Shown here piece by piece: positions 655 through 57,873 of a DNA stretch of 60,551 bases. This stretch comes from Patescibacteria group bacterium (GTDB lineage: Bacteria; Patescibacteriota; JAHJAL01): contig JBAZOB010000003.1 of assembly GCA_041648895.1 (NCBI GenBank), forward strand, positions 1-60,551, in the 5' to 3' direction. The position numbers and the translations under genes were made by a program. How positions within the stretch are numbered: the stretch's first letter is position 1; every line of letters begins with the position of its first letter. A model generated the notes under the pieces. That model saw nothing but the letters and a program-made list of their open reading frames with translations. It ran no database searches and had not been told where the DNA came from.

Positions 655-981
655 TTATTTCTTTGGTTTTTTCGTGCTAACGTCGATGATTTTTTCTTCA
701 GTTTGGGGTGGTTGATAATATTTTTTCAAGACCGATTCGGGGGTAAGTTTAACAATAAGATATGCACAGCCGGTCAAGACGGCGGCATCATCGATACTTC
801 CTAAAACTGGGATATAGTCGGTGATAAAATCAAAAGGTAATATTAGATAAAGGATAAAGGCGGTGATGGGTAGAAGTTTGGCTAGCCAAGGTACCTCTTT
901 GTCAAAGAGTAATTTAATGGGTAGGGCTAGGCTTTCAAAAAATTGGATGAATTGTGGTTTGACGGGTGGGTGGGAATTCAT
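655..981 (-). CDS. DUF1232 (YkvA-like) small membrane protein
   Basis: Motif LILPFDFITDYIPVLGSIDDAAVL is typical of DUF1232. Hydrophobic helices are present. The stop abuts the upstream gene. Confidence 0.7.
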   Translation of the reverse strand: MNSHPPVKPQFIQFFESLALPIKLLFDKEVPWLAKLLPITAFILYLILPFDFITDYIPVLGSIDDAAVLTGCAYLIVKLTPESVLKKYYQPPQTEEKIIDVSTKKPKK

Positions 982-3761
982 TATTGGACGGTTAGATTGA
1001 TACTTTTTTGTTTGGAATTACCAGCGTTATCAAAAGCGATGACTACAATGTTATAGTTGCCACTACCGGGGTAGGTCCAGGTGGTGGAAAATATATTGTT
1101 GGTGTGCGAACTGACCGTTGAGTAGGGAGTGGAATTAATTTTGTATTCAACCCGGTTGATACCGGTTTGATCGTCGGTGGCGGTGGCTTGGATAATATAG
1201 GGGAAATTGCTGGAACCGAGAGTGCCACCATTGGTGGGCGAATTTATGGTTAAGCTGGGGGCGCTAGTATCGGGTGTATTGGAAATGTTGATATCGACTG
1301 AATCGGAGGCGGATAGATCAAAGTTATCAATTAAATTGACGGCAAGGTGATGTTGGCCGGAATTGACGGAAGAAACATCGTATATCAACGAATATGGTTC
1401 CAAAGAGGTTTGGCCAATGGATGTGCCATCAAAATAGAATTCAATGGTTTTGACCCCGCCCGGGGCGTTGACGGTGGTGCTAATGTTTAGAATGCTATTG
1501 ATGGTCGAATTTTCCCCGGGGTAGGTGATGTTGATACTCGGTTTAATGGCGTCAAGAGTACATTTTTCGGTGGGTGGGGGGGAAGAAAGATTGGCACCGG
1601 CGGCCCAACCTTGGACTGGTTTTTCCCAGTTAGGGTCGTCGGGCATTTCGGAATGAATGACGCGGTAAACTTTTTCTTCGGTTAAATTGGCCGGAATACT
1701 ATCGTCGGCTAGTAAACCGTTGGATTTGCAGACGCGATAAATAGTCACGTCGCTGGAATATTCAGTTGGCTGGTGCCAGGAGGCGCCGAGGTCAGTATTG
1801 GTTGGTGAACCGGTGACCGGCTTCTGATTGGAGTATTTATCGACGCTGATACTAACGATGCCGTCGGGTTTATCAAATTGTTCAATCGGGGTATTGTCGA
1901 GAAGGTAATGCATGTATTCATTCCAGATGGGAGCGGCAATGTAGACGCCGGTTTCCCCGTACATGGAGGTATTGTCATTATTACCTGTCCAGACGCCGGT
2001 TACTACCGATGGGGTGTATCCCAATGTCCAACCATCTCGAAATTCATCGGTGGTACCGGTTTTGGCAGCTACCGGACGGTCACCAAGTTGCAGGGGACTA
2101 GTGGAGCCAAAAGTGGGGGTGCGGGCGACATTGTCGGATAAAACGTTGGTGATTAGATAGGCAACTGGTTCGGGAAATATTTCTTTTTGATTTTGATTCT
2201 TTTGTTCTTCCGTCCATTCCTCCAGAATATTGTTATTGGCATCGGTGATTTTTAAAATGCTAGAAACCGGATTATATTTACCTTTATTGGCGAGGGTAGC
2301 GTAGGCGTTGGTTAGTTCAAGTAATTTGACTTCACCGCCACCCAATACTAGAGATAATCCATAGCGGTCCGGGTCGTTCAAGGATTCGATACCCATGTCG
2401 TTGGCTATTTTGATAGTTTTTTCCAGACTGACCAAAGCCAGCATTTTGACGGCGGGGATATTGAGGGAGTTTTGCAGGGCGGTGCGGATGGTGACTGGTC
2501 CACGAGTGGCTTTGTCATAGTTATCGGGGGCGTAACCGCCACCAAAATCGGTTTTTAAGTCATAGAGAGTACTGCCGGGAAACCATTTATCCATAAAGCC
2601 AATCGCGTAAACAAATGGTTTAAATGATGATCCGGGCTGACGTTTGGCAGTGGCCACGTTGACGTTACCGTCGTTGTCGGTATCCCAGTAGTTTCGGGAG
2701 CCGACCATTACTAATATTTGGCCGGTTTTGGGGTCAATGGAAACGAGGGCGGCATTGTTGGCGTTGAAGTTAATCGCGTTGGCGTCGGCATGGCGGGTGA
2801 GAATTTCCTGTGCTTTGTTTTGTTTATCTAAGTCGAGGGTGGTAATAATGGTTAAACCGCTTTCTTCGATTTCCTTTTGGGTATATTTTTGTTCCAGCTG
2901 TTCCAGGACATAGAAGACAAAATGTGGGGCCTGAATATTTTCCTGGCGACGTTTGAATTGAATTTGTTCGCTTAGGGCTTCGTCGAGCTGTTGTTGATCA
3001 ATATAGCCGAGCTCGTGCATCTGTCCCAGAATCCAGTGGTGACGCTGTGATAGTTCGTCGGTGTGATTACCGTAGGGCGAATAGTATGATGGGGCTTGAA
3101 TAATGGCGGCCAAAACCGCGCCTTCAGCGATGGTCAAATCTTGGACATTCTTGTCGAAATATATTTCGCTGGCCGCTTGGACACCGTAGGCGGTACTACC
3201 AAAAGGAATTTCGTTGAGGTATATCTGCAATATTTCTTCTTTGGAGAGGCGCTGTTCGATTTCGATGGATAGGATTAGCTCTTTGATTTTGCGGGTATAT
3301 GTCTTTTCACTGGTTAGCATGGTGTTTTTTACTAGTTGTTGGGTAATGGTGCTGGCACCCTCACCATAGATATCGCGGTTGAGTAGATTATTGAGGACAG
3401 CGCCCAGGAAACGGCGGGGATTAAAACCAATATGTTGGTAAAAATCGCGATCTTCGGTTGTGATCATGGCATCTTTGAGATGCTTGGGCATATCGTCGAT
3501 GGATACTAGAGTCCGTTGGATGTCACCGTGAACTTCATAGAGCAACTTTTCATTACGGTCGTATATTTTGGTAGATTGAGCTATTTGTCTTTCCTGCAGC
3601 TTGGAGGGATCGGGGAGTTCTGATGATAAACTATAAAAAAGAATGGAGGTGGCTAAAATGGTCAGAGAAAACAGAAATAAGGCAATTTGCCACACCCATT
3701 TGAAGACGCTTGATACAATCATATATTTTTTATTCATATGGTTAATATTATCAATTTTCAT
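981..3761 (-). CDS. Class A penicillin-binding protein (PBP1A-type transglycosylase/transpeptidase) with C-terminal Ig-like repeats
   Basis: N-terminal TM anchor. GT51 motifs EDRDFYQHIGF and GASTITQQL. Transpeptidase motifs SSFKP (SxxK), SLN (SxN) and KTGTT (KTG). About 250 aa of repeated beta-rich C-terminal domains. Confidence 0.9.
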   Translation of the reverse strand: MKIDNINHMNKKYMIVSSVFKWVWQIALFLFSLTILATSILFYSLSSELPDPSKLQERQIAQSTKIYDRNEKLLYEVHGDIQRTLVSIDDMPKHLKDAMITTEDRDFYQHIGFNPRRFLGAVLNNLLNRDIYGEGASTITQQLVKNTMLTSEKTYTRKIKELILSIEIEQRLSKEEILQIYLNEIPFGSTAYGVQAASEIYFDKNVQDLTIAEGAVLAAIIQAPSYYSPYGNHTDELSQRHHWILGQMHELGYIDQQQLDEALSEQIQFKRRQENIQAPHFVFYVLEQLEQKYTQKEIEESGLTIITTLDLDKQNKAQEILTRHADANAINFNANNAALVSIDPKTGQILVMVGSRNYWDTDNDGNVNVATAKRQPGSSFKPFVYAIGFMDKWFPGSTLYDLKTDFGGGYAPDNYDKATRGPVTIRTALQNSLNIPAVKMLALVSLEKTIKIANDMGIESLNDPDRYGLSLVLGGGEVKLLELTNAYATLANKGKYNPVSSILKITDANNNILEEWTEEQKNQNQKEIFPEPVAYLITNVLSDNVARTPTFGSTSPLQLGDRPVAAKTGTTDEFRDGWTLGYTPSVVTGVWTGNNDNTSMYGETGVYIAAPIWNEYMHYLLDNTPIEQFDKPDGIVSISVDKYSNQKPVTGSPTNTDLGASWHQPTEYSSDVTIYRVCKSNGLLADDSIPANLTEEKVYRVIHSEMPDDPNWEKPVQGWAAGANLSSPPPTEKCTLDAIKPSINITYPGENSTINSILNISTTVNAPGGVKTIEFYFDGTSIGQTSLEPYSLIYDVSSVNSGQHHLAVNLIDNFDLSASDSVDINISNTPDTSAPSLTINSPTNGGTLGSSNFPYIIQATATDDQTGINRVEYKINSTPYSTVSSHTNNIFSTTWTYPGSGNYNIVVIAFDNAGNSKQKSINLTVQ

Positions 3762-7163: not shown

Positions 7164-9263
7164 TTATTTTATAATGACTGAATATATTTTGTTATCAGCC
7201 AAGAGGTAGATGGTGTTTATTTTTTCATTGACGACAAAATAGTCGATATCACCCAGGTTATCACCAACGACTTGCTGAATGTATGAACCATCATCTTTTT
7301 TAAATTGTAAAATACGTTTGTTGTTGGGATCAGAGATATAGATAAAGTCGGAGTCTTCGTCGGTATAAATATGATTGGGATTAGATAGGGTGCTATATGG
7401 TTCAGGCAGGCCGGATAATTTATATTCGGATGCTTCCCCTTTGATGAATTTAATTATATTGCCGTCCGATTTGAGAACATATATCGCGCCATCGATGGCG
7501 AGTGAGGTGGCGTTGGAGAGGTCCAGGGCGCCGGCATTGACAATGTAATCACTGGCGGTGGAATAACTGGTGCCACCCAAGGTGGAATATTTAAAGATTT
7601 GATTGGCGGCGGGAGATAAAAGGTAGAGGTTGTCATAGTAGGTGGCGAGGCTAACGGCTGGTTGCCAGGCTGAATCGAGGGTGGAAATATCGATCAGGGT
7701 ATTGCCGCTGGGGTCAAACTTTTGCATCAGTCCCTGGTGGTAAAAGATTAGATTGGTCGAGTTGTTGGCTAGTGAAGCATCAACGAAGTTGTTGATGTCA
7801 AAGCCGGTGATGTTGGTGATTTTACCACTGGTAAAATTGATGCTGGCGATATCGTGGGCAAAACTATAGAGATTGTCATCGATCCGGAAGAGGCCATGGT
7901 ATTTTTCTTCAGAAATACTGCTTAGATCGGCCAATGGCTCATTGGTGTTGAGGCGGGATATCTGGTCAACTCCGTCAAGTTTGGAATAGATATTATTGTT
8001 GAGGGAAGTTATTTCTTCACTAAAAAATGGCGATGACTCAATTGATGCCAATAGTTCAAGGGCTTCTGAATATTTACTTTTAGCCCCATTGTTGTCGCCA
8101 ACAATCATGGCATTGTCGGCCTGGCTGGCTAGATCATCGGCTTGGGTCAGAATATTGTCAACGGAATTCTTTTTGTTGTTTAAATTTTGGCGGTTGCGAA
8201 TATAGGTAATACTGAAACCTAAAATGATAATTAGAATAATAATGGCGCCGGCAATATAGTATTGTTTTTGGCCGGGTTTTTGGTTTATTTTTTGGAGCAA
8301 GTTGGTTTTGGTATCGAGGCGGCGCGGAGTTTTAGTTGGTTTGCCGTGTTTAATCACGGGGGCTTTTTTGGGTTTTCTTTGATTGTGATTATCCTGATTT
8401 TCTGTTTTGGGTTGGGAGCGAGCAGCGATTTTTTTGGTGATTTTGTTGATAGAAGCGCCAATTTGAGCAAAGAAATTTCTTGCTTGTTCAGTAATGACGG
8501 AGAATTTAGTGCCTTCATTCTTTTTATCTTGAAGAATAACTTCTTCGGGTTGGGGTTTGACTACTTCTTTGGCTAGTTTTTCTTCAGTGGTGGCTTCCAT
8601 CATAATCGTACCAATGCTGCGAATGTTTTCTTGAGCCAGGATACGGGCAATCTCCGCCACACAAGTGGTAGGATTGTGTTGGACTGCTAAACGGCGTAGG
8701 CGATCGAGAGAGATATTATTGAACAGTTGCTCGGTGGAAATGATAATGCGATCGCCAAGAATCATTTTGCCGCTGGAGATGTTAACAAAAGTGTTCAGTG
8801 GGTGTTTATCTTCATTTTTATCTGACAAGCCTTCGGTAATGTGGCTGATAATTTTATTTCTTATCAAAAAAGCCTCACAAGTTCCGGTTTGGGTGAGGTG
8901 AATATCGTGATTGCTGACGACGGCGATGACGGCGTTAAGGTTGTCTATCCAATGAGAATTACCTTGTTCGGCAGCTTCGGCCAAACTTTCATTGACGTAG
9001 CGGAGAGCAATTTCTAAAGAAGTGAGTGGATCATCGAGATTCTTGTAGTAATTTTTGATAGTCGCTTCAACGATGGTATCAAATATTTTTTGGGAATCTT
9101 TTTGGGGGTGATGAATATCGAGGACGAAGAATAAACAACCATGGTTTTTTTGGGAGGTCTTACTGGGAACATAATGTTCAACATGAGTTAGGTGGTCCTG
9201 TCCGGATAACTTACTATAAAGTTTACCGATGCGAACAGTTTTATGTTCTGGTTGCTTTTTCAT
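7164..9263 (-). CDS. Membrane protein with a cytoplasmic PP2C/SpoIIE-like (degenerate) N-domain, one TM, and an extracytoplasmic beta-propeller-like C-domain
   Basis: The N-terminal segment (LNAVIAVVSNHDIHLTQTGTCEAFLIRN...GDRIIISTEQLF) resembles the PP2C fold. A K/R-rich linker is followed by a TM helix (YYIAGAIIILIIILGFSITYI). The C-terminal ~330 aa are repetitive and beta-rich. The call is tentative. Confidence 0.4.
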   Translation of the reverse strand: MKKQPEHKTVRIGKLYSKLSGQDHLTHVEHYVPSKTSQKNHGCLFFVLDIHHPQKDSQKIFDTIVEATIKNYYKNLDDPLTSLEIALRYVNESLAEAAEQGNSHWIDNLNAVIAVVSNHDIHLTQTGTCEAFLIRNKIISHITEGLSDKNEDKHPLNTFVNISSGKMILGDRIIISTEQLFNNISLDRLRRLAVQHNPTTCVAEIARILAQENIRSIGTIMMEATTEEKLAKEVVKPQPEEVILQDKKNEGTKFSVITEQARNFFAQIGASINKITKKIAARSQPKTENQDNHNQRKPKKAPVIKHGKPTKTPRRLDTKTNLLQKINQKPGQKQYYIAGAIIILIIILGFSITYIRNRQNLNNKKNSVDNILTQADDLASQADNAMIVGDNNGAKSKYSEALELLASIESSPFFSEEITSLNNNIYSKLDGVDQISRLNTNEPLADLSSISEEKYHGLFRIDDNLYSFAHDIASINFTSGKITNITGFDINNFVDASLANNSTNLIFYHQGLMQKFDPSGNTLIDISTLDSAWQPAVSLATYYDNLYLLSPAANQIFKYSTLGGTSYSTASDYIVNAGALDLSNATSLAIDGAIYVLKSDGNIIKFIKGEASEYKLSGLPEPYSTLSNPNHIYTDEDSDFIYISDPNNKRILQFKKDDGSYIQQVVGDNLGDIDYFVVNEKINTIYLLADNKIYSVIIK

Positions 9264-14610: not shown

Positions 14611-14849
14611 AATTCCTCTTATTAATAAAATTAAATAAAGTATATATTAATCAGATTAAGAATTTATTAAGACTATACAAAAATGGTCCTCCGACCAGAC
14701 GACAATCCCTTTCGAGATTGCCCCAAACTCTTTCGAGTGAGGACCTACGTGAATAAGTGTCGGTCATGAGGACCGTCTTCATTCACGTAGGTTTTAAAAA
14801 CCATACTTCAGTAAATTGAAGGTTAGGTTATTTGTCTAATATAATCGTA

Positions 14850-44041: not shown

Positions 44042-44590
44042 ATGAAAAAATTACATAACAATCAATCCGGTTTCGGTCTCATCGAAGTCATCATTGGCAT
44101 CACCATGCTTTTGATTACTTCCACGGCGGCTCTTAGTCTTTCACACACGGTGACGACCGCCGAACGTCTGAATGAAAAGCGGGTAGTGGCTTACAACCTG
44201 GCCCAACAGGTCATAGAGGAAATTCGGCGCAAGCGGGATAGTAATTGGGATGACCTTAAAGCCGAGACACGCTGGGAAGACAGTGATATTTTGGATGATT
44301 TAAATAACTACTACGCGACGACCGGTAGTGAATGCGAGGTGCAAAGTACCAGCGAAATTGTGTGCGATATTGATAATACGGAGTACACTGTTACCAAAAA
44401 TATTGATGAATTAACTGACGACAATATTTCCGGTCTGCATGATATTGCAAATGACGATCGTGGTTCATATATTTCCGGCACTTTAGCCAAACGGGTGGAG
44501 GTGGTGGTGGAGTGGTTTGATAAAGGCGAGCCGCAGGATCTATCACTGGTGACCATGCTCTCGGACTGGAGTTCGATTAGTTATCAATAA
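44042..44590 (+). CDS. Pseudopilin (prepilin-type N-terminal cleavage/methylation domain)
   Basis: NQSG-FGLIEVIIGITMLLI. Confidence 0.8.
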   Translation: MKKLHNNQSGFGLIEVIIGITMLLITSTAALSLSHTVTTAERLNEKRVVAYNLAQQVIEEIRRKRDSNWDDLKAETRWEDSDILDDLNNYYATTGSECEVQSTSEIVCDIDNTEYTVTKNIDELTDDNISGLHDIANDDRGSYISGTLAKRVEVVVEWFDKGEPQDLSLVTMLSDWSSISYQ

Positions 44591-44627
44591 AAGAGAACTT
44601 TTAAATAAGTGGAGCGTATTGCCAAAA

Positions 44628-44795
44628 TGTCATCCCCGACCGAAAGCGAGTCAGCGAGCGCTTCGGCCATCGGGGATCTCATCCATAACGTGTTTAGTGG
44701 AGCTTGAGGATGAGATCCCCGCTCAAGGCGGGGATGACAGGCAGGCAGTTGTCATCCTCAACAGAAAGCGATAGCGTTTCTGATTGGGGATCCAG
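44628..44795. mobile_element. MITE-like elements: one full copy (44628..44739) plus an adjacent left half of the CCT subfamily (44750..44795)
   Basis: Same termini and hairpins as the other copies. Confidence 0.75.
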
Positions 44796-44804
44796 AAAAT
44801 AATT

Positions 44805-45350
44805 ATGAAAAAAACATATAAAAATCAATCCGGTTTCACTCTTGTCGAGATTCTCATCGCGGCGATGATTTTCATGTTGTCTTCCATCATGTTCATGGGT
44901 GTTTTTTCCATGGTGTCCAACGCTACTTTGCGGGTGGAAAATGAGCGGTTTGCGCAGCAGGACGCGCGCTACGCGATTGAGCAAGTTTCGCGCGAGATTA
45001 GGGGCGGATGGGATTTTGAGACGGCGGACGGGGGCAAGACTTTGGAATACAAGAGTTTGTCGGTGGACGGAGACCTGATGGATTGTTCAATGTATTTTGA
45101 ATTGATGGATGAAGGTACGGATAATGCCAAGGGGGTGATCAATAAACAATGTGATCTTTTGAGCGGCGTGCAGCAGCTTTCCAGCGGCGTGATCAATGTG
45201 GAAGACTTTGAGTTCGCGGTGATCCAGCCGGCCAATGAATACGCCAGTGTGGAACTGCGGATGAAGGTGAAACGGCAAGACTTCAATAAGTTAGCTAAAT
45301 CGGTGGAACTTAGTACACGGGTGACTTCGCGGATGCGGAGTTATGAATAA
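44805..45350 (+). CDS. Pseudopilin (prepilin-type N-terminal domain)
   Basis: The start was moved to ATG 44805 (MKKTYKNQSG-FTLVEILIAAMIF). The ORF-track start 44784 lies inside the MITE. Confidence 0.8.
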   Translation: MKKTYKNQSGFTLVEILIAAMIFMLSSIMFMGVFSMVSNATLRVENERFAQQDARYAIEQVSREIRGGWDFETADGGKTLEYKSLSVDGDLMDCSMYFELMDEGTDNAKGVINKQCDLLSGVQQLSSGVINVEDFEFAVIQPANEYASVELRMKVKRQDFNKLAKSVELSTRVTSRMRSYE

Positions 45351-45410
45351 AAGGATCAAGTGTCAAGGATCAAGGATCAAGTAAGATAGCATCGGACAAC
45401 ATAATTTACC

Positions 45411-45526
45411 TGTCATCCTGGAGGCGGAAGCGAGTATTTTAGAAGAATGGATATTTACTTTTAATGTCATCCCCGACCGGAAACGAAGCGTAGCGAAGTG
45501 CTCCGGCTATCGGGGATCTCATCATC
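45411..45526. mobile_element. MITE fragments (a CCT-type terminus at 45411 and a left half at 45465..45524)
   Basis: 45465..45524 is identical to 42491..42550. ORF 45439..45873 (-) is spurious. Confidence 0.7.
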
Positions 45527-45552
45527 AAGAATGCAAATAAAGCCTTACATAA

Positions 45553-46593
45553 ATGAAATCTATTTATCAGAAAATTAAATCTATCCTCTCCGACGACTCC
45601 GGCTCGGCCATCATCATGGCCCTGATTATAATCGCCGGCCTCGCCGGCACCGGTCTTGGTGCTGCTCGTCTGTCGCGGTCCAACATTAGCCAGACCAACC
45701 AATTTGAAGACTCGCTGAAGGCTTTCTACGCGGCGGAAGCGGGCGTGGAAGCGGCGCTGCTGGAATGGCGGTTTGATCATGATGTGGAGTTTTGGGATCA
45801 GCAGGCGGCCAACGACTGCTATGATTCCGGCGGTACGGATGTCGATCGCTGCGCGGCGGCCACTCCGGCACACTATGTGACGCTGGATGATCAGACTTCG
45901 GCTTTTATGGGGCAGGATCTGGTGAGGAATTTGAGTGAAACTGAGGTGGAGGCGGGGGTGGTGCCCAAGAATCAGGCGTGGTATGAACTCCGGATTTATT
46001 ATCGGGATCCGAAGAATCCGTTTTTGGGGAATTATAATGGGTTTAATCCGGCGGTGGATAAAGAGGTGAGGATAAATAAAGATGAGACGCTGGAGATTAG
46101 GTTCCCGGAGAAGGATGAAGTAAAGGGTTTTAGTTTAAGATGGGCTCCTGATGGTATTGTGACTGGTAGTGATGAGTTTGTGCAATTAATGGTGCATCCG
46201 GTAGCAAAAGATGTGGATACAGGTGATACAGATCTTGTGTCTCCTCGTGGTAAAGAATATTTTACTGACAAAAACTGGAGAAATAATCAGCAGGGCGCAT
46301 TATATAATATTGAAAATGTATCTTCACTTGGAACTGGCAATTATGATTATGTATATAGTTTGCGAGTAAAGTGTTTAACAAATAATGAAAGTGGTAGTGC
46401 GGTGGTAGCGCTTTGGGCTTTTGATGGTGCTAATAATCCTATTCATGTGCCGCTTGATTTCATAACTATTGAATCAGTTGGACACTACAATGATGTTGAG
46501 AGGAAGGTTGTATATGAAATTGATAGAGAGAGTGGCACGATAATGGATATATTTGATCACGGTGTGTTTTCAGAACAAACACTGAGAAAGTAA
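45553..46593 (+). CDS. PilX-like minor pilin / pseudopilin
   Basis: N-terminal DDSGSAIIMALIIIAGLAGTGLGA hydrophobic helix typical of PilX_N. 346 aa. Last gene of the pilus block. Confidence 0.6.
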   Translation: MKSIYQKIKSILSDDSGSAIIMALIIIAGLAGTGLGAARLSRSNISQTNQFEDSLKAFYAAEAGVEAALLEWRFDHDVEFWDQQAANDCYDSGGTDVDRCAAATPAHYVTLDDQTSAFMGQDLVRNLSETEVEAGVVPKNQAWYELRIYYRDPKNPFLGNYNGFNPAVDKEVRINKDETLEIRFPEKDEVKGFSLRWAPDGIVTGSDEFVQLMVHPVAKDVDTGDTDLVSPRGKEYFTDKNWRNNQQGALYNIENVSSLGTGNYDYVYSLRVKCLTNNESGSAVVALWAFDGANNPIHVPLDFITIESVGHYNDVERKVVYEIDRESGTIMDIFDHGVFSEQTLRK

Positions 46594-46727: not shown

Positions 46728-48338
46728 TTAGAACGAAAATACTTCCCAGCGTCGAGGTGGATCGGCGAAATATACGAGGTAGTTGTTGCTGAAATCTCCA
46801 CCTCCTGGAGCCCATCCTGTAGGTAGGATTATGTCACACATACGTGTGGACGTCGTTCCTTCTACCAGGAATAGACTTTCCATTGCATTACCGGTGCCGG
46901 TGTCGCCGTCAGAGAATATTGCAGTTTTTCCGTTTTTTTTGGTAGAGCACAAAAAATTACTGTTATTTTGGCTCCATTCTGCAATATATGTTCCGCTGGA
47001 ATTGTATTTTGTGATCTTATCGCTTTCAGAACTGGCAACATAGAAGTTACCGTCTTCATCAGAAATAAGATCTTGCGGCCTTGCTGATAAATTTATTTTT
47101 GTGGAAGGATTCGAACCATCAAGGTCAAATTGCATAACAGTAGATGATGATCCACCGTTATCATCCACAAAAAATATTTTACTGGGAAGGAGTGGGTTAT
47201 ATGTTACCCCATTTCCTTGCCCAGAGAAAGGAGCGCCGGGAAAAGATGTTGGACCACTTGAGAAATCTATTGGAAAATAACATGCTGTTGTACCTGTCGG
47301 TAAGTACAGCCTGTTATTTCCTGGATGGAGGCCGATATATCCCAATCCAAGCGAGGTACTGCTTGTGTTATTTTCGGTCAATGCTGGAAAAGATACGTCT
47401 CTGATGATGTTCCAGCTTAAATCGTAAGCGTATACCTTGTTTCCAGTTTGATCGAATACCAGGTCCCAAATACCCCAGCCAGCGGTGTCTTTTGAGATGT
47501 CGTCCCTATATTTATAGACGACGAAATCCTTCTCGACGGATCCGCTGGTATTTTCTATCTTTATTGTCGTAAAACCTTGTCCGAATACGTAGGTTTCACT
47601 GACAATATTGAATGAGATCAAACCGTCGTTTTGGGTTATGACACCCAATGACTGGTCTGTCCCGTTTATTTTCACTGAACAGCTGCCCAGATTACTGCCT
47701 ACAATGGTTACTTCCGTTCCCTCGGGTCCACCCGAGGGGGCAACTAATGTCACCACCGGTGTCGGCACCGCGGTCGCCGTAGCGGTGGCGGTCGGGGTAG
47801 GCGTAAACGTCGCCCCAGGAATTGGGGTCGACGTGGGGACCAACGTTGGACTTGGTGTCCACGTTGGCGTACCTGGCCCGGGCGTCGGGGGTAGGGTAGG
47901 GGTCGCCGTTGCGGTTCCTGTGGAGTAGTCGTCTGTGTACGACTCTCCACTGAGCGACACTTGTCGCTCAACTATTGGGTTTGTACCACCTTGTTGGTAG
48001 ATACCAATGAGGTACTCACCCTTGTTGACTTCAGAAAAGCCATCTCCATTCGAGTCCAAATTGAACCCAAATGGAATAGCTTGACTTCCGTCAATTTGAC
48101 TCCCAGTAGTTATTGGATTTCCCTCGACTCGGCCGTTGGCCTCGTCTGACAAGACTCTGTATATTGTCTTGTCAGGGCCACTGGGGGTAGGAAAAGTGAT
48201 GTTTGTGGGGACCGATGTGGGGTCCGAGGGCACCCCTGGAAGTCCGCCTCCACCACAGCCTATCAACAATGACAAAATAAGGATGGTTGAGGTAAATTTA
48301 AAAAATTTCGTTCTGAACAAATTGATCAATCCTTTCAA
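46728..48338 (-). CDS. Lipoprotein with a P/T-rich linker, an IPT/TIG domain and a beta-propeller (NHL-like) C-domain
   Basis: Lipobox LLIGC. Linker TATPTLPPTPGPGTPTWTPSPTLVPTSTP. IPT-like VVTLVAPSGGPEGTEVTIVGSNLG. Repetitive C-terminal half. Confidence 0.6.
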   Translation of the reverse strand: MKGLINLFRTKFFKFTSTILILSLLIGCGGGGLPGVPSDPTSVPTNITFPTPSGPDKTIYRVLSDEANGRVEGNPITTGSQIDGSQAIPFGFNLDSNGDGFSEVNKGEYLIGIYQQGGTNPIVERQVSLSGESYTDDYSTGTATATPTLPPTPGPGTPTWTPSPTLVPTSTPIPGATFTPTPTATATATAVPTPVVTLVAPSGGPEGTEVTIVGSNLGSCSVKINGTDQSLGVITQNDGLISFNIVSETYVFGQGFTTIKIENTSGSVEKDFVVYKYRDDISKDTAGWGIWDLVFDQTGNKVYAYDLSWNIIRDVSFPALTENNTSSTSLGLGYIGLHPGNNRLYLPTGTTACYFPIDFSSGPTSFPGAPFSGQGNGVTYNPLLPSKIFFVDDNGGSSSTVMQFDLDGSNPSTKINLSARPQDLISDEDGNFYVASSESDKITKYNSSGTYIAEWSQNNSNFLCSTKKNGKTAIFSDGDTGTGNAMESLFLVEGTTSTRMCDIILPTGWAPGGGDFSNNYLVYFADPPRRWEVFSF

Positions 48339-49692: not shown

Positions 49693-50553
49693 ATGAAGAC
49701 GATCGGAATAATTGCTCCTTCAAGACATCTTGGAGAGTATAAAGATATATTTAATTTTGGTGTTGATAGATTAAGGAGAGAGGGATTTAATATTGTAATG
49801 GCACCAAATGTCTATGAAGTTGATAATAATTCTGCGGGTAGTATTGAACAGAGAATAGCTGGTTTGGATCAGATTTTACTAAATGACGATATTGACGTTG
49901 TGATGTGTACTTTGGGCGGAGATAGTGCCAATCATTTACTTGATCGAATTGATTGGAGTGTTTATTCAAAATTAAATAAGATTTTGATTGGCTATAGTGA
50001 TGTTACTCATTTGCTGTTGGCGTTTCAAAAAAAGACAGATCTAAAATTGTATTATGGCCCTCATATTAAAGATATTTCTAGTTTAACCAATGAATCTTTT
50101 GGAGTTTTAACTACTTTTATTGATACTGGTGGGTTGCTCTGGCCTGATGATTTTCAAGTGGTAAGATCTGGAAAGGTGATTGGTGAGTTGTATGGAGGTA
50201 ATTTGTTTGTGGTGAATAATATGTTGGCTACGGATTATGTTGATGATTTTTCTGGAAGAGTATTATTTTGGGAAGATGTTGATGATGGATTATCGGCAGT
50301 TGAGTATCAATTGTATCAGATGAGATTGCACGGGGTATTTAGCAGAATAAAGGGGATGATGGTTGGCAATGTAGTGGGTGACGATATTGATAACAATAAT
50401 TTGGCTGAAATTATTTTGGATGCGGCAAGAGGGTTCGATTTTCCGATTGTAAAGGTGGATTGGTTTGGACATGAGGTGAATGATTTTCGGGTAGTGCCCT
50501 ACGGGGGTAAGGTGATGATTGATATTGTTGAGGATAAATTGGAATTAATGTAA
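49693..50553 (+). CDS. S66 family LD-carboxypeptidase / MccF-like serine peptidase
   Basis: IGIIAPS N-terminus, nucleophile elbow IGYSDVTHL, later FWED and FGHE consistent with a Ser-Glu-His triad. Confidence 0.75.
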   Translation: MKTIGIIAPSRHLGEYKDIFNFGVDRLRREGFNIVMAPNVYEVDNNSAGSIEQRIAGLDQILLNDDIDVVMCTLGGDSANHLLDRIDWSVYSKLNKILIGYSDVTHLLLAFQKKTDLKLYYGPHIKDISSLTNESFGVLTTFIDTGGLLWPDDFQVVRSGKVIGELYGGNLFVVNNMLATDYVDDFSGRVLFWEDVDDGLSAVEYQLYQMRLHGVFSRIKGMMVGNVVGDDIDNNNLAEIILDAARGFDFPIVKVDWFGHEVNDFRVVPYGGKVMIDIVEDKLELM

Positions 50554-50653
50554 TTTTTTTTTAGTTGTAATTAACAGATCTATTAAGATATTTAAATATA
50601 TTTTAATTGTTCTTTAATAATTAAATGATTTGAATGTAAGGAGGGGGATATAC

Positions 50654-51559
50654 ATGATCAGTGCGATCGATGTAGTAATAAAGTATTCAAAGGAAGTGAT
50701 AGATGGTGCGTCTTTCACAATTATGGACGGAGACAAGATTGGTATTGTTGGGCCTAACGGAGCTGGTAAATCCACCTTATTCAGGGCGATAATGGGTGAT
50801 ATCAAGCCCAGCTCGGGCAGGATTGAAATAGCAAAAAACACTCGACTGGGGTTTTTGCCCCAGGTTATATACGATGATTATTCTGTTATGGATAGTACGA
50901 TATATGATTATTTTATGTCTGTTCATAACTTAAAGGAATTGGAAGATGAATTGAATCAGATTTGTGAGGCTATGGAGGATGGAGTCGATGTTGAGAAGAA
51001 GATGGATAAATACATAGTTTTACAAGACAGGTTTCAGATGCTGGGCGGATATGAACTTGAAGGTAGACTGAAAAAAGTTATAAAAGGTCTTGGTGCGGAA
51101 GATTTTGATTTGCAAAGAAAGATGTGGAGTTTGTCTGGTGGAGAAAAATCAAAAATAGCTTTGGCGAGACTGATTTTTTCTGAGCCAGATGTGATGTTGA
51201 TGGACGAACCTACCAACCACTTAGATAAAGATATGTTGAGGTGGGTGGTTGATTTTCTGAAGAAGTACAAAAAGGCATTGGTCATTATTTCTCATGATCA
51301 GACTTTTTTGGATGAGGTTGTAAATCGAATATATTACGTTTCTCATGAGAATTTAGAGATTTATCATGGGAATTATTCGAAATTTGTAGAGCAGAAAAAG
51401 GAAAGAGATGACACTTTGCAGAGGGTAGAGAAAAACCGTGAGAGAGAAGAAAAACGTATTTTAGATTATGTAAATAAAATGCAGAATATATCGGGAAGAA
51501 GAAAAAGACAGGTAAAGAGTAGGATGAAGCAACTTGATCGCTTGAGTGAAAGAAAATAG
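50654..51559 (+). CDS. ABC-F ATPase, N-terminal part (NBD1 plus K/R/E-rich interdomain linker)
   Basis: Walker A GPNGAGKST, signature LSGGEKSKIALARL, Walker B VMLMDEPTNHLD, linker EKNREREEKRILDYVNKMQNISGRRKRQVKSRMKQLDRLSERK. No TM domain. The start was moved to ATG 50654, after AGGAGGGGG. Confidence 0.8.
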   Translation: MISAIDVVIKYSKEVIDGASFTIMDGDKIGIVGPNGAGKSTLFRAIMGDIKPSSGRIEIAKNTRLGFLPQVIYDDYSVMDSTIYDYFMSVHNLKELEDELNQICEAMEDGVDVEKKMDKYIVLQDRFQMLGGYELEGRLKKVIKGLGAEDFDLQRKMWSLSGGEKSKIALARLIFSEPDVMLMDEPTNHLDKDMLRWVVDFLKKYKKALVIISHDQTFLDEVVNRIYYVSHENLEIYHGNYSKFVEQKKERDDTLQRVEKNREREEKRILDYVNKMQNISGRRKRQVKSRMKQLDRLSERK

Positions 51560-51573
51560 AGATAAAAGATGAA

Positions 51574-52245
51574 ATGAAAAGAGTAAGATTATCTCTAGAT
51601 AATTTCACGGATTGTGGTAAGTTGCCGTTGGATATTGAGAAGTTGGAATTTTCATATCCAGGTTCCGAGCCGATAATTTCTGGTCTGAGTTTTGAAGTTT
51701 TACCGGAAGAAAAGTTTTTGATTGTTGGGAAAAATGGAGTAGGCAAGACTACCTTGATGAGGATATTAGCGGGGAGGATTGGGGGTTACTTGGGTAGTCT
51801 TCGTTATAATCCTAAAGTTGAATTAGCGTATTATTCTCAAGAACATGAGGATTTATGTCTTGAGAATAAGGTGATTGATGAGATATTAAATGTTACGGAC
51901 TGGAGCCATGGAACAGTAAGAAACTATTTGGCTAGATTCTTGTTTAATCAGGAAAAGGTTTTTCAAGAAGTTGAGACTCTTTCTCCTGGTGAGCGAAGTA
52001 GACTAGCACTAGCCAAAATGATTGTGTCTCCATCGAATTTTTTAGTTCTTGATGAACCAACTAATCATTTGGATTTTCAGACCAGAGATGTTTTGGCTGA
52101 TGCTCTGAATGAAAGTGGTAAGACGATGATAATTGTTTCCCACGAGATTAAGTTTCTTGAGAGACTCGAAATTGATCGGATGTTGATTTTGCCTGAGAAA
52201 ATAGTTGATTACTATGATTCTCAGGTAGTTTTGGAAAGGAAGTGA
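51574..52245 (+). CDS. ABC-F ATPase, C-terminal part (NBD2); separate frame from the N-terminal part
   Basis: Walker A GKNGVGKTT, signature LSPGERSRLALAKM, Walker B LVLDEPTNHLD. This frame is open from 51550, so a 1-nt shift in gaaagaaaa (51548..51556) would fuse the two parts. Confidence 0.8.
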   Translation: MKRVRLSLDNFTDCGKLPLDIEKLEFSYPGSEPIISGLSFEVLPEEKFLIVGKNGVGKTTLMRILAGRIGGYLGSLRYNPKVELAYYSQEHEDLCLENKVIDEILNVTDWSHGTVRNYLARFLFNQEKVFQEVETLSPGERSRLALAKMIVSPSNFLVLDEPTNHLDFQTRDVLADALNESGKTMIIVSHEIKFLERLEIDRMLILPEKIVDYYDSQVVLERK

Positions 52246-52251
52246 TATGTT

Positions 52252-53331
52252 ATGCACAGGGAGTGTTTGTTGCAGATAAAGCCGGTGGGTTCTTCATGCA
52301 ATATGAATTGTTCATATTGTTATGTTGAGCCTTTTAAGAAAAAGAAGATAAACAGAATGACTCTAAAATTGCTTGAAAAAGTGGTGAGTAAATATTCTGA
52401 ATTGGATATTGAAAACCCGACTTTCAGTTGGCATGGGGGAGAACCACTGCTTTTTGGTCTGGAGAATATGGAAAAAGCAATGGATTTGCAGAAAAAATAT
52501 TTTAATGGAAGAGGTGTAGTTAATCTTGTTCAGACGAATGGTACTTTGATTAATCTTGATATGGCCACCTTTCTTGCAGAAAATAATTTTATAGTAAGCG
52601 TTAGCTTAGATGGTTCTGCTGAAGTGCATGATAGGAATCGCAAGTTTGGCGAAAACGGATCATTTGGTCGAGTAATGGCTGGGGTGGATGTTTTGCGTAG
52701 TGTAGGCTTGAACACAAGTGTGATAGCGACTGTCACGAAGGAAAATCTGGAGTTTTCTAAAGAGGTTTTTACTTTTTTGGTAAACCAAGGTTTTACTTCA
52801 ATAAAATATAGCCCGGTCTATGATTCTAATAGGGATGCCTTTAGTATCTCTTCGGACGAATGGTTCAATTATTTGTCTGAGGTATTTGACTTATGGATGG
52901 GTTTGGCTAGTACTGGCATAAGAGTCAGGGAATTGGACGAAGTTATTGTTTGGCTAAAAAAGGATCGACTAAACCTTTGTGCCACAACAGGTGGTTGTTC
53001 AAAATGGATGTCAGTTGATCCGGAAGGGAATATTTATCCATGTGAATATTTACGGAGTAAATTTTCGTATGGAAATATTCTTTGTCAAAATTTTTGCCAG
53101 ATCATGACTTCGAGTGAGTTCGTTGAGTTTGGGAGACTGGTATCAGTTCCTAATATTCAATGTTCAGAATGTGAATTCTATGACTTTTGTGGAAATGGTT
53201 GTCCGGCCACAAGAGTTGATTTTGAGGGCAATATTTCTTACTCCGGGCAATATATTTATTGCAACCAGAGGAAGAGATTATATCAGAAAATAAAAACAGA
53301 TTTTGAAAAAATATTAGGTCATGGAATCTAA
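52252..53331 (+). CDS. Radical SAM / SPASM-domain enzyme (anSME-like peptide-modifying maturase)
   Basis: CNMNCSYCY (CxxxCxxC) at residues 16-24, WHGGEPLL, QTNGTL. C-terminal auxiliary-cluster cysteines CATTGGC...YPCEY...CSECEFYDFCGNGCPA. The start is 6 nt after the ABC-F stop. Confidence 0.85.
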   Translation: MHRECLLQIKPVGSSCNMNCSYCYVEPFKKKKINRMTLKLLEKVVSKYSELDIENPTFSWHGGEPLLFGLENMEKAMDLQKKYFNGRGVVNLVQTNGTLINLDMATFLAENNFIVSVSLDGSAEVHDRNRKFGENGSFGRVMAGVDVLRSVGLNTSVIATVTKENLEFSKEVFTFLVNQGFTSIKYSPVYDSNRDAFSISSDEWFNYLSEVFDLWMGLASTGIRVRELDEVIVWLKKDRLNLCATTGGCSKWMSVDPEGNIYPCEYLRSKFSYGNILCQNFCQIMTSSEFVEFGRLVSVPNIQCSECEFYDFCGNGCPATRVDFEGNISYSGQYIYCNQRKRLYQKIKTDFEKILGHGI

Positions 53332-53352
53332 AAAACAAAGGAGGTGAAAGCA

Positions 53353-53430
53353 GTGCAAGAATTTGTTTGGACAATATTAAATACCGACTCCGAGTGGAGT
53401 GGATCAGCTGCTCAATGGATTAAGTGTTAA
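53353..53430 (+). CDS. Candidate RiPP precursor peptide 1 (25 aa)
   Basis: AAGGAGGTG lies 6 nt before GTG 53353. Sequence VQEFVWTILNTDSEWSGSAAQWIKC*. Paralogous to peptide 2. Not in the ORF track. Confidence 0.6.
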   Translation: MQEFVWTILNTDSEWSGSAAQWIKC

Positions 53431-53463
53431 ACACTTGATCTGCCGGGCGAAGGAGGTGAAAAT

Positions 53464-53550
53464 ATGTCTGACATTCAAAATTTTGTCACTGCAGTGCTTA
53501 GTGAAAGTTCAGAATGGCAGGGGTCAGTTGCGTCCTGGACGAAGTGCTAG
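53464..53550 (+). CDS. Candidate RiPP precursor peptide 2 (28 aa)
   Basis: AAGGAGGTG lies 5 nt before ATG 53464. Sequence MSDIQNFVTAVLSESSEWQGSVASWTKC*. Not in the ORF track. Confidence 0.65.
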   Translation: MSDIQNFVTAVLSESSEWQGSVASWTKC

Positions 53551-53565: not shown

Positions 53566-53600
53566 AAAAAAGACCGTGAGGTAAAACTCGCGGTCTTTTG
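53566..53600 (+). terminator. Rho-independent terminator closing the rSAM-peptide operon
   Basis: agaccgtgag-gtaaaa-ctcgcggtct followed by tttt. Confidence 0.75.
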
Positions 53601-53733: not shown

Positions 53734-54183
53734 ATGAACATAGAATCCAAGAACCAATCCTTCTCCTGCGAAAACTGCGGCGCTGCTGTTTCCGGCCCTG
53801 GGGAAATTAGCACCAAACATCGTAATCATTGCCCGGTATGTTTATTTTCCAAACATGTCGATTTGAACATATCCGGTGACCGGCAGGCCAAGTGTGGCGC
53901 ATTGATGAAGCCAATTGGTTTAACATTTAAACAGGAAGGACAGGATAAATATGGGAAAGTACGGACGGGAGAGTTGATGCTGGTGCACGAGTGCGTGGGT
54001 TGCGGACGGGTTTCGATCAATCGGATTGCGGCTGACGATGATCCGGAAAGTATCTTGGCGGTTTTTGATCAGTCGCTAGATTTATCAATCAGGAAAAAAG
54101 ATGATTTGCAAAAAATGGGTATTCGGATCTTAACTGAGTCTGATAAGGCAGAGGTAAAAAAGCAGCTTTTTGGAAAATATTAA
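53734..54183 (+). CDS. RNHCP domain protein
   Basis: It contains the eponymous RNHCPVCLFSKHVD motif plus CENC and CVGC zinc-ribbon pairs. Confidence 0.75.
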   Translation: MNIESKNQSFSCENCGAAVSGPGEISTKHRNHCPVCLFSKHVDLNISGDRQAKCGALMKPIGLTFKQEGQDKYGKVRTGELMLVHECVGCGRVSINRIAADDDPESILAVFDQSLDLSIRKKDDLQKMGIRILTESDKAEVKKQLFGKY

Positions 54184-54436: not shown

Positions 54437-54655
54437 ATGACTAAAACAACGATTGATGATTTGTCAAAGATAATGAGCGATGAAGTATCGTTATTGGACG
54501 AGAGATTGACAAAATTGGAAGAGCGGATGCTGGTAATGGAGATGAATATGCGTGATCTGGGCCATTCCAATGAGGCGACGCAATATTTTTTGCGAACGGT
54601 GACTAGTGATGTAGTGGCCATCAAGCAGTATCAGAATATTAGTAATCGATATTAA
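54437..54655 (+). CDS. Small coiled-coil hypothetical protein
   Basis: 72 aa. GGAGGTG lies upstream of the ATG. The stop overlaps the start of the next RNHCP gene. Confidence 0.45.
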   Translation: MTKTTIDDLSKIMSDEVSLLDERLTKLEERMLVMEMNMRDLGHSNEATQYFLRTVTSDVVAIKQYQNISNRY

Positions 54656-54957
54656 TGCCAAATAAGAAATTTCAACGTTGCCAAGAAGATTTTACTTGCG
54701 ATAATTGCGGGAAAGAGGTGATCGGCAATGGTTACACCAACCATTGCCCATATTGTTTGTATAGCAAACATGTTGATATTAACCCGGGCGATCGAGCGGC
54801 GGAGTGTGGAGGGTTAATGTGCCCGGTGGGAGTAGAAATTAAACGAGGCCAATATATTGTGCGACATCGGTGCGCAAAATGTGGACATGAGAAACCAAAT
54901 CGGATTGATGAGGCGGATGATATGGAGGTGGTGATTGAAATTGCCCGACATCGTTAA
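54655..54957 (+). CDS. RNHCP domain protein (short paralog)
   Basis: CDNC...TNHCPYCLYSKHVD...CAKC. It aligns with 53734..54183 apart from a missing internal loop. Confidence 0.75.
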   Translation: MPNKKFQRCQEDFTCDNCGKEVIGNGYTNHCPYCLYSKHVDINPGDRAAECGGLMCPVGVEIKRGQYIVRHRCAKCGHEKPNRIDEADDMEVVIEIARHR

Positions 54958-57422: not shown

Positions 57423-57494
57423 GGCCCCTTCGTCTAGTGGTTAGGACGTGAGATTTTCAATCTTAAAACAGGAGTTCGATTCTCCTAGGGGCTA
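57423..57494 (+). tRNA. tRNA-Glu (anticodon UUC)
   Basis: Hand-folded: GGCCCCT acceptor, anticodon arm TGAGA-TTTTCAA-TCTTA, T-arm AGGAG-TTCGATT-CTCCT. Length 72 nt. Confidence 0.85.
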
Positions 57495-57504
57495 TTTTTT
57501 GGTT

Positions 57505-57873
57505 ATGAAAAAAAATATTTATAAAATATTAATGTTTCTTACGGCAACAACGGTTTTCTCTGGATGTTGGCTTTTGGATTTCAACGCTCGTCTAGCCTCG
57601 GATTTGATACCTGGTTTGGAACATAACAATGAAGTGTTGTTTACCGAGGCTAAGTCATTGTTTATGGAAAAGAGAAATACTTATTCCGGGGCGGAATGGG
57701 TTAAGGGTCCGTGTTTGGGTTGGTTGAATGATGAATGGGTGGTGGATATTTCGCATAGTCCCAGACAGCCGATTGATGATGATATTAATAATCAGTGTCA
57801 GCAATATTATAATGGCGAAGCTAAACATTTTATTGAGATCAGCCCGGAAGGGGAGATTTTAAATTATAAGTAA
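57505..57873 (+). CDS. Small lipoprotein, function unknown
   Basis: The start was moved to ATG 57505 because the ORF-track start lies inside the tRNA. The lipobox VFSGC follows MKKNIYKILMFLTATT. Confidence 0.55.
   Translation: MKKNIYKILMFLTATTVFSGCWLLDFNARLASDLIPGLEHNNEVLFTEAKSLFMEKRNTYSGAEWVKGPCLGWLNDEWVVDISHSPRQPIDDDINNQCQQYYNGEAKHFIEISPEGEILNYK

Follow-up and report, generated by a model that had tools for sequence, protein, structure and literature searches.

Radical S-adenosylmethionine (SAM) enzymes with a SPASM domain build several rings in which an aromatic residue and a lysine are joined. Darobactin has a Trp-Lys C-C ring (PMC10288494), HtkB links His-C2 to Lys-C-beta on the motif H-T-K and also turns over W-T-K, in low yield (PMC11499958), and Trp and Lys two positions apart are also joined by a radical-SAM/SPASM enzyme in tryglysin (WgkA/WgkB, W-G-K) and in streptide (Lys-Trp). 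The anaerobic sulfatase maturases (anSMEs) begin their chemistry at the C-beta hydrogen of a Cys or Ser residue. The present work concerns a 60,551-nucleotide stretch of DNA from a Patescibacteria group bacterium (GenBank assembly GCA_041648895.1, contig JBAZOB010000003.1, positions 1 to 60,551), called in its full length the window, and within it two tandem mini-open reading frames (ORFs), P1 and P2, that follow a radical-SAM/SPASM gene. We conclude with high confidence that P1 and P2 are precursors of a ribosomally made peptide with post-translational modifications (RiPP) acted on by the adjacent maturase. This reading follows from conserved synteny, from conservation of both leader and core, and from co-occurrence (20 of 23 loci of close maturase relatives against none of 145 loci of true anSMEs). 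A previous interpretation based on the letters of the window (the sequence-only reading) had taken them for selected, duplicated precursors of a radical-SAM/SPASM enzyme, and the comparison across loci bears this out.

Tandem precursor peptides and their family

P1 and P2 exist exactly as the sequence-only reading had described them, including the GTG start of P1. The features at this end of the operon are:

53339-53344, plus strand: Shine-Dalgarno site AGGAGG of P1, assigned from the sequence, 8 nt upstream of the GTG.
53353-53430, plus strand: precursor peptide P1, 25 amino acids (aa), GTG start at 53353, TAA stop at 53428-53430; E 1.7e-3 with the family hidden Markov model (HMM).
53451-53456, plus strand: Shine-Dalgarno site AGGAGG of P2, assigned from the sequence, 7 nt upstream of the ATG.
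53464-53550, plus strand: precursor peptide P2, 28 aa, ATG start at 53464, TAG stop at 53548-53550; E 2.2e-5 with the family HMM.
53568-53599, plus strand: intrinsic terminator hairpin at the operon end, 13-bp stem running into a U-tract; RNA fold -27.4 kcal/mol.

The translations of P1 and P2 are VQEFVWTILNTDSEWSGSAAQWIKC and MSDIQNFVTAVLSESSEWQGSVASWTKC, respectively. A second in-frame GTG for P1, at 53344, falls within the Shine-Dalgarno site. Both AGGAGG sites are embedded in an identical 12-nt string (AAGGAGGTGAAA); the sequence-only reading had proposed that the whole unit, ribosome-binding context included, was duplicated. The two coding sequences are 55% identical (43/78 nt); 13 of the 25 aligned residues are the same, seven of them specified by different codons, and the stop codons differ. 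This synonymous divergence fits selection on the peptide, the interpretation already given to the diverged DNA and retained peptide sequence. The tandem pair of precursor copies was found in the window only, among the loci examined. The terminator hairpin was revealed by RNA folding (z -6.5; none of 200 shuffled sequences equally stable), while a consensus terminator scan gave no match for it.

The peptides were compared across 23 fetched loci encoding close relatives of the maturase (39-51% identity), 24 loci when the window is included. A short ORF of the same architecture is present in 20 of the 23 (L002-L006, L081-L085, L087, L088, L161-L168). It mostly adjoins the maturase gene directly; the distance is 1.4-3 kb in L003, L004 and L163, and in the last two the peptide ORF adjoins an ABC-F gene. 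The three loci without the peptide are L001, where the contig begins at the gene, L086, a contig of 1.5 kb, and L089, where the gene is broken. Record titles of peptide-bearing loci name SR1, Saccharimonas, Clostridia, Alphaproteobacteria and unclassified bacteria. The peptide-family HMM had zero matches in 1.27 Mb of sequence from the 145 true-anSME loci; the family occurs only beside maturases of this clade. When every stop-to-stop segment of the window that reaches 20 aa (1747 in total) is scored with an HMM built from 55 non-window peptides, P2 comes out first and P1 second. More members came from a word-indexed search and from a profile search run exhaustively over 1.84 billion representatives. 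The distinct precursors of the family number at least 66, and its maturase clusters exceed 100. None of the members found in databases carries a name, and no Pfam or NCBIfam model matches the peptide family.

Conservation was assessed on the 66 distinct peptides from loci and database searches combined, which are 23-53 aa long (median 35). They share an N-terminal segment, [KR]-x-x-F-[VL]-x-x-V-[LI], forming an amphipathic leader, and a C-terminal core, [DN]-W-R-G-x-[LI]-x-[NS]-W-x-K-C, that runs to the stop codon; a typical member is MSKREFVLAVLARIGKDVKNMRPDDWRGLLHNWIKC. Counted from the C-terminus, Cys at -1 and Trp at -4 are found in all 66 peptides and Lys at -2 in 65, the remaining one having Arg (W-I-R); W-[ITVMR]-K is accordingly present in 65/66. 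Ser never stands in place of the terminal Cys. Further upstream the residues are Asn or Ser at -5 (56/66), Gly at -9 (58/66), Arg at -10 (59/66), Trp at -11 (63/66) and Asn, Asp or Glu at -12 (55/66, with Glu in 4/66). A stop codon follows the Cys immediately in 19 of 19 loci examined (TGA in eight, TAA in six, TAG in five). P1 and P2 are divergent members with a short linker and, at -10, Ser and Gln rather than Arg. The tail S-E-W-x-G-S-x-A-x-W-x-K-C that the sequence-only reading had called invariant is indeed shared by the two paralogues, but its Ser, Glu and Ala are specific to them and do not extend to the family. Homologue alignment, put forward in that reading as the place to look for frameshifts, stops or motif loss, had the opposite outcome, the motif being conserved in relatives.

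Several family members depart from this scheme. Three with a short core lack the -11/-9 motif, and two of these also lack an acid or amide at -12. In L161 (6105-6290), P0123 and P0169 no stop follows the Cys; its place is taken by a sense codon that a single change would turn into a stop (CAG; Gln; Trp), and reading on lengthens the peptide by 18-52 residues; these extensions may be natural "follower" variants or inactivated copies. In the 241-aa database protein P0162, the first ~207 residues of a maturase are fused in frame to a complete precursor peptide, probably through a deletion or an assembly artefact. A 51-aa ORF rich in Lys, Gly and Asn (MSKKKSNSQKYGSTKGKKGNTYF...) lies between maturase and ABC-F in L167 (6105-6260) and is unrelated to the precursor family.

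The maturase and its characterised relatives

The genes preceding P1 are closely packed on the same strand, in the order S66 peptidase, split ABC-F and radical-SAM/SPASM enzyme, followed by P1, P2 and the terminator:

49693-50553, plus strand: MccF-like S66 serine peptidase, with which the operon begins; Pfam Peptidase_S66 and S66C.
50630-51559, plus strand: N-terminal half of an ABC-F ATPase (first nucleotide-binding domain, NBD1, and linker); NCBIfam NF000355 229 bits; Pfam ABC_tran and ABC_tran_Xtn.
51574-52245, plus strand: C-terminal half of the ABC-F ATPase (NBD2); NF000355 179 bits; best PDB match PoxtA, 215 bits, the next 160.
52252-53331, plus strand: radical-SAM/SPASM maturase, 359 aa; Pfam Radical_SAM and SPASM; best PDB match anSMEcpe, E 1.5e-41.

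The maturase gene starts 6 nt past the stop of the ABC-F C-terminal half and ends 21 nt upstream of P1. Its CX3CX2C motif occupies residues 16-23, with C16, C20 and C23 invariant in the family, which leaves no space for an N-terminal RiPP recognition element (RRE); a Pfam search of the maturase likewise identified Radical_SAM, Fer4_12 and SPASM only, and no RRE. The best 119 relatives are 41-51% identical to it.

By its profile scores the maturase family is a sister clade of the anSMEs. With the anSME model TIGR03942 (cut-off 349.45 bits) the window maturase scores 252.7 and its relatives 232-288, against 436-462 for true anSMEs and at most 215 for the family with any other model. The window maturase stays below the cut-off of every curated NCBIfam family model. 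Six of the ten NCBIfam matches next below the three sulfatase-maturase models are cyclophane synthases (DynA, YhhB, GrrM/OscB, AmcB, DarW, DarE). The score with DynA (213.6 bits, cut-off 450) was considered as a lead and dropped, true anSMEs scoring the same on this model (206-217). In the PDB, anSMEcpe is by far the best match (146 bits), ahead of CteB (E 1.5e-16) and ChlB (54 bits, E 1.4e-13).

The resemblance to anSMEs extends over the full length of the alignment, including CX3CX2C and the lack of an RRE. Eight cysteines assigned to the auxiliary clusters are invariant in the family (C243, C249, C264, C317 and C304, C307, C313, C337) and align, with the same spacing, with the ligands of anSMEcpe, Cys255/261/276/330 and Cys317/320/326/348 (PMC5715301). 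Both auxiliary clusters are thus predicted to be fully Cys-ligated, for a total of three 4Fe-4S clusters. At six "catalytic-site proximity" positions defined by the Mitchell laboratory (PMC10288494) and located here by way of the CteB alignment, the residues are YHQSEY in 21 of the 23 members and YHQSAY in two, while 142 of 146 anSME-type loci have YHQSD[FY]. The profile groups the family with anSME, with weak discrimination since ChlB (YHQSDV) shares four of the six residues. The proposed catalytic Asp of anSME (Asp277) is a Glu in the family and an Ala in L088 and L164, two loci whose maturases are paired with short-core W-R-K-C peptides lacking the upstream W-R-G. Covariation of this E265A exchange with the short core was entertained and discarded, because the pattern fails in L003 and in L006, where a short core goes with a retained Glu. 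Two further radical-SAM genes, at 921-1931 (minus strand) and 7488-8738 (plus strand), flank the maturase/peptide/S66 unit of L161; the first of them groups with the maturase family by BLAST. The family departs from the anSMEs, besides its scores and the exchange of the catalytic Asp, in its partner, a peptide of 23-53 aa rather than a sulfatase. In these peptides the sulfatase motif C/S-x-P/A-x-R is missing and the only invariant Cys is the last residue.

The other characterised systems each share part of this architecture. The W-x-K element has the spacing of darobactin W3-S4-K5, whose Trp-Lys ring is made by an anSME-like radical-SAM/SPASM enzyme, and darobactin and dynobactin also derive from short precursors with the core at the C-terminal end. 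The family core nevertheless has the W-x-K element only, when compared to W-x-W-x-K of darobactin or W-x-N...H-x-Y of dynobactin, and no W-x-W ether motif. Those peptides are without an invariant terminal Cys, their partner genes are not the ABC-F and S66 genes of the family, and the window maturase is far below the cut-off of DarE (104 bits vs 650) as well as of DynA. Triceptides (HtkA/HtkB, YhhB, GrrM/OscB, ChlB) have in common with the family an aromatic-X-Lys motif whose third residue bears a C-beta, and a leader recognition that is independent of an RRE. Triceptide-synthase models, however, give the family enzyme 122-137 bits against cut-offs of 310-445 (AmcB 122 vs 425, GrrM-OscB 134 vs 310, YhhB 137 vs 445), and ChlB, a weak PDB match, lacks the cysteines of auxiliary cluster I (Aux I) in the aligned region. 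The family peptides, moreover, carry a single W-x-K followed by the invariant Cys, the second Trp being in W-R-G. Tryglysin and streptide, in which the spacing of Trp and Lys is the same, belong to streptococcal quorum-regulated clusters with other precursors and no terminal Cys, and the WgkB model gives 77 bits against 650. FxsB, another of the three-residue cyclophane models, also stays below its cut-off (92 vs 370). Ranthipeptides and sactipeptides (NxxcB, PapB, QhpD, CteB) resemble the family by an invariant Cys never replaced by Ser, upstream residues of the Asn/Asp/Glu type and a radical-SAM/SPASM maturase. They differ from it in that the family has no RRE, an apparently fully ligated Aux I, low scores (PapB 143.6 vs 340, QhpD 88 vs 453, SCIFF 81 vs 425) and one Cys at the extreme C-terminus. 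Mycofactocin is set apart by the score of its enzyme MftC (68 vs 265) and by the ends of the peptides, K-C in the family and not Val-Tyr.

ABC-F and S66 partner genes

The pairing with a PoxtA-like ABC-F and an MccF-like S66 peptidase is an addition to what the sequence-only reading had noticed. In 10 of the 24 loci an ABC-F gene is found no more than two genes from the maturase, in at least five different orders and orientations, and an S66 peptidase gene adjoins the maturase in seven (the window and six others). Other neighbours of the maturase are class-I methyltransferases (5-6 loci), DUF1749 alpha/beta hydrolases (three) and a C39 peptidase (one).

Intact cluster ABC-Fs pass the model NF000355, "ribosomal protection-like ABC-F" (410-412 bits vs 380), and fail the EttA, Uup, YbiT and YheS models. 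Their best match among solved structures is PoxtA, with 505 (L166) and 472 (L167) bits, whereas housekeeping ABC-Fs do not exceed 273; the L166 protein is 48% identical to PoxtA over 528 aligned positions, nearly without gaps. By tblastn, the ABC-Fs of six loci align end to end with full-length PoxtA at 40-47% identity, and the window halves reach 36-39%. PoxtA constitutes subfamily ARE8, shields the peptidyl-transferase centre from phenicols and oxazolidinones, is known from enterococci and staphylococci only, and its relationship to other ABC-Fs is unresolved (PMC8987054). In the window the gene is interrupted in the inter-domain linker by a TAG at 51557 and a TAA 3 nt further on, with a new ATG at 51574, whereas homologues elsewhere are unsplit single proteins of 537-548 aa. 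The window copy could be a functional two-piece protein or a decaying immunity gene. Its C-terminal half is PoxtA-specific.

The window S66 peptidase has MccF immunity proteins as best PDB matches (E 1.5e-25), ahead of the murein LD-carboxypeptidases. The Ser/Glu/His triad is kept (GYSD, ED and His in the MccF alignment). The inter-domain stretch is ~23 aa long compared to ~53 aa in MccF, and ~30 residues of the MccF insert, which holds the nucleotide, are missing. ABC-F and S66 are two unrelated, recurring types of partner whose characterised relatives, PoxtA and MccF, both protect against translation-directed antibiotics; their association with the maturase tentatively suggests a product that acts against translation.

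The genes just past the operon terminator (53734-54183 and 54655-54957) encode a pair of zinc-ribbon paralogues with an RNHCP domain (PF12647); they were rejected as members of the system, no counterpart being found in any related locus. Elsewhere in the window, a row of type-IV-pilin-like proteins with N-terminal hydrophobic helices is found at 44042-46593, and a 536-aa Thr/Pro-rich surface-type protein is encoded on the minus strand at 46728-48338. The Rfam model of the LOOT RNA (RF03000) has a full-length match at 14701-14829 on the minus strand (72 bits vs a gathering score of 46.4). GlmS encoded in the window has its closest named relatives, at 54-55% identity, in "Patescibacteria group bacterium", so that the contig most likely derives from a member of the candidate phyla radiation. 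A tRNA at 57423-57494 (Rfam, 64.7 bits) overlaps the 5' end of a 141-aa ORF starting with GTG (57448-57873). The true start of this ORF, if it is a gene, must consequently be further downstream.

Proposed modification and competing explanations

We tentatively favour a reading in which tandem RiPP precursors are converted by a W-x-K cyclophane-forming maturase into a ribosome-directed product. The maturase would bind the leader without an RRE and generate a 5'-deoxyadenosyl radical, and a C-beta hydrogen would be taken within the invariant W-x-K-C tail, the electron leaving via the two auxiliary clusters predicted to be fully cysteine-ligated. If the hydrogen were taken from C-beta of Lys(-2) and this carbon were joined to the Trp(-4) indole by a C-C bond, a three-residue cyclophane would result, comparable to darobactin ring B or to the ring that HtkB forms on H-T-K, with the invariant terminal Cys as a second reactive or functional group. 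This bond is our best single guess, though a doubtful one, because Trp -4 and Lys -2 are invariant with darobactin/triceptide spacing. The cyclophane synthases among the NCBIfam matches of the maturase, six of the ten ranked below the sulfatase-maturase models, count in the same direction. By analogy with the characterised relatives of the partner proteins, the mature peptide may inhibit translation at the ribosome, and the role of the PoxtA-like ABC-F and the MccF-like S66 hydrolase would be to shield the producer or to process the peptide; both points are likewise put forward tentatively.

A number of observations weigh against this reading. The cyclophane chemistry is inferred from sequence comparisons, and no cyclophane-synthase model gives the enzyme a score above its cut-off; the value with DynA, which true sulfatase maturases reach as well, carries no specific signal. 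ChlB, a solved triceptide synthase, is a far weaker PDB match than anSMEcpe (54 vs 146 bits), and the active-site-proximal YHQSEY is almost the anSME pattern. A cyclophane alone leaves the invariant, strictly C-terminal Cys unexplained, and no three-residue cyclophane can form on the upstream W-R-G, whose Gly lacks a C-beta. Regarding the product, ABC-F proteins can be housekeeping translation factors too (PMC8987054), and the window ABC-F is split by two stops, its N-terminal half not being PoxtA-specific (215 bits with PoxtA vs 232 with YheS/EttA). The Trp-Lys crosslink of the sequence-only reading stands as far as the residues and their spacing are concerned, but the enzyme passes no cyclophane-synthase model.

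The first alternative is an anSME-type oxidation, in which the C-beta hydrogen would be taken from the terminal Cys to yield a thioaldehyde. Since the terminal Cys bears a free alpha-carboxylate, decarboxylation to an enethiol or aldehyde is conceivable, and the Lys amine, the Trp indole or both might then capture the product. The placement of the family next to the anSMEs by TIGR03942, the PDB match to anSMEcpe, the eight auxiliary-cluster ligands at the same spacing and the proximity profile all fit this chemistry, as does a Cys that is found in every peptide and directly followed by a stop whichever codon is used. Several partners would be able to act on a modified C-terminus (the carboxypeptidase-family S66, the methyltransferases and the alpha/beta hydrolases), and Cys thioaldehydes readily yield enethiolates, thiazoles and formylglycine (PMC13638132). 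Yet the family scores remain below the TIGR03942 cut-off and well apart from true anSMEs, the sulfatase motif is absent from the peptides, and DarE resembles anSME overall while making cyclophanes (PMC10288494). The invariance of Trp -4 and Lys -2 would in addition demand an extra, unprecedented condensation step. Sulfatase maturases act on Ser- and Cys-type substrates, and with no Ser for Cys in 66 peptides a plain formylglycine end product is unlikely. We regard this alternative as unlikely on the whole. It overlaps with the earlier suggestion of a modified C-terminal residue, which is supported by the strictly terminal Cys and the anSME-like enzyme, but not in the form of the MftC analogy, given the score of that model.

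A sactipeptide- or ranthipeptide-style thioether from the terminal Cys sulfur to an upstream carbon is distinctly unlikely. Candidate acceptors are Asn/Asp/Glu at -12, Asn/Ser at -5, and the Lys or Trp. Asn, Asp and Glu are the thioether acceptors of NxxcB, PapB and QhpD, and the family has Asn/Asp/Glu at -12 in 55 and Asn/Ser at -5 in 56 of the 66 peptides; the exclusion of Ser from the last position recalls NxxcB, which refuses Ser and Thr (PMC9389541), and the PapB model does register 143.6 bits. This score and those of QhpD and SCIFF (81-144 bits in all, cut-offs 340-453) are nevertheless lower than those of the anSME models, and the maturase is without an RRE. The four conserved Aux I ligands would leave no open iron for the substrate thiolate on which proposed mechanisms rely. 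The three short-core members, two of them without an acid or amide at -12, also speak against it, and an invariant Trp and Lys would be unusual for acceptors that tend to be tolerant (PMC9389541). The sequence-only reading had drawn this thioether to an "invariant Glu"; in that form it fails, since Glu is rare at -12 in the family. The position itself keeps its Asn/Asp/Glu character, so that a bond to it is conceivable, but the retained Aux I ligands speak against the customary route through a cluster-bound thiolate.

It is very improbable that the mini-ORFs are regulatory or ribosome-arrest peptides tied to an ABC-F translation factor. Known arrest peptides likewise have about a dozen conserved residues, Trp among them, at the C-terminus and a stop at a set position, and ABC-F proteins resolve stalled ribosomes, which would suit the ABC-F genes nearby in 10 of 24 loci. 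The window ORFs are, however, the last before a strong terminator, and the next gene is convergent in many loci; the N-terminal helix is conserved as well, and the peptide tracks the maturase and not the ABC-F, being present also in loci without one. Chance ORFs in an intergenic tail, an idea to which the very short length and the GTG start of P1 might lend themselves, are refuted by conservation: the two ORFs are paralogues with synonymous change, the homologues number 66, and no other segment of the window scores as well with the family HMM.

Judged from its sequence, the locus would belong to the radical-SAM RiPPs, with precursors of a family not described before, a maturase whose clade is uncharacterised and a set of unusual partners. 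Full-text literature searches (supplements and subscription journals excluded), made with the core sequences and for radical-SAM RiPPs of Patescibacteria, returned no publication on the peptide family and none on a RiPP cluster with an ABC-F immunity gene. A W-x-K-C-COOH tail combined with an anSME-sister enzyme fits no characterised chemistry cleanly, and a new chemistry is likely for this reason. Radical-SAM RiPPs have already yielded new bond types and antibiotics (darobactin, dynobactin, tryglysin). The family is largely found in uncultured lineages, including Patescibacteria, from which we know of no characterised natural product.

The recurrent pairing with ABC-Fs 40-47% identical to PoxtA offers a lead on the natural compounds against which ARE8-type ribosome protection evolved, and on whether target protection by an ABC-F can serve as immunity to a RiPP. 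The most far-reaching combination of these elements would be a new RiPP class, mostly of the candidate phyla radiation (CPR) and other uncultured bacteria, in which a C-terminal Cys thioaldehyde, made by an anSME-sister enzyme, together with decarboxylation and/or condensation with Lys/Trp, forms an unprecedented three-residue warhead that blocks the peptidyl-transferase centre, with the PoxtA-like ABC-F and the MccF-like S66 as self-immunity. We consider this conjunction a long shot. If true, such a thioaldehyde-warhead RiPP with ABC-F/S66 self-immunity would hint at where in nature the poxtA resistance family, which matters in the clinic, came from.

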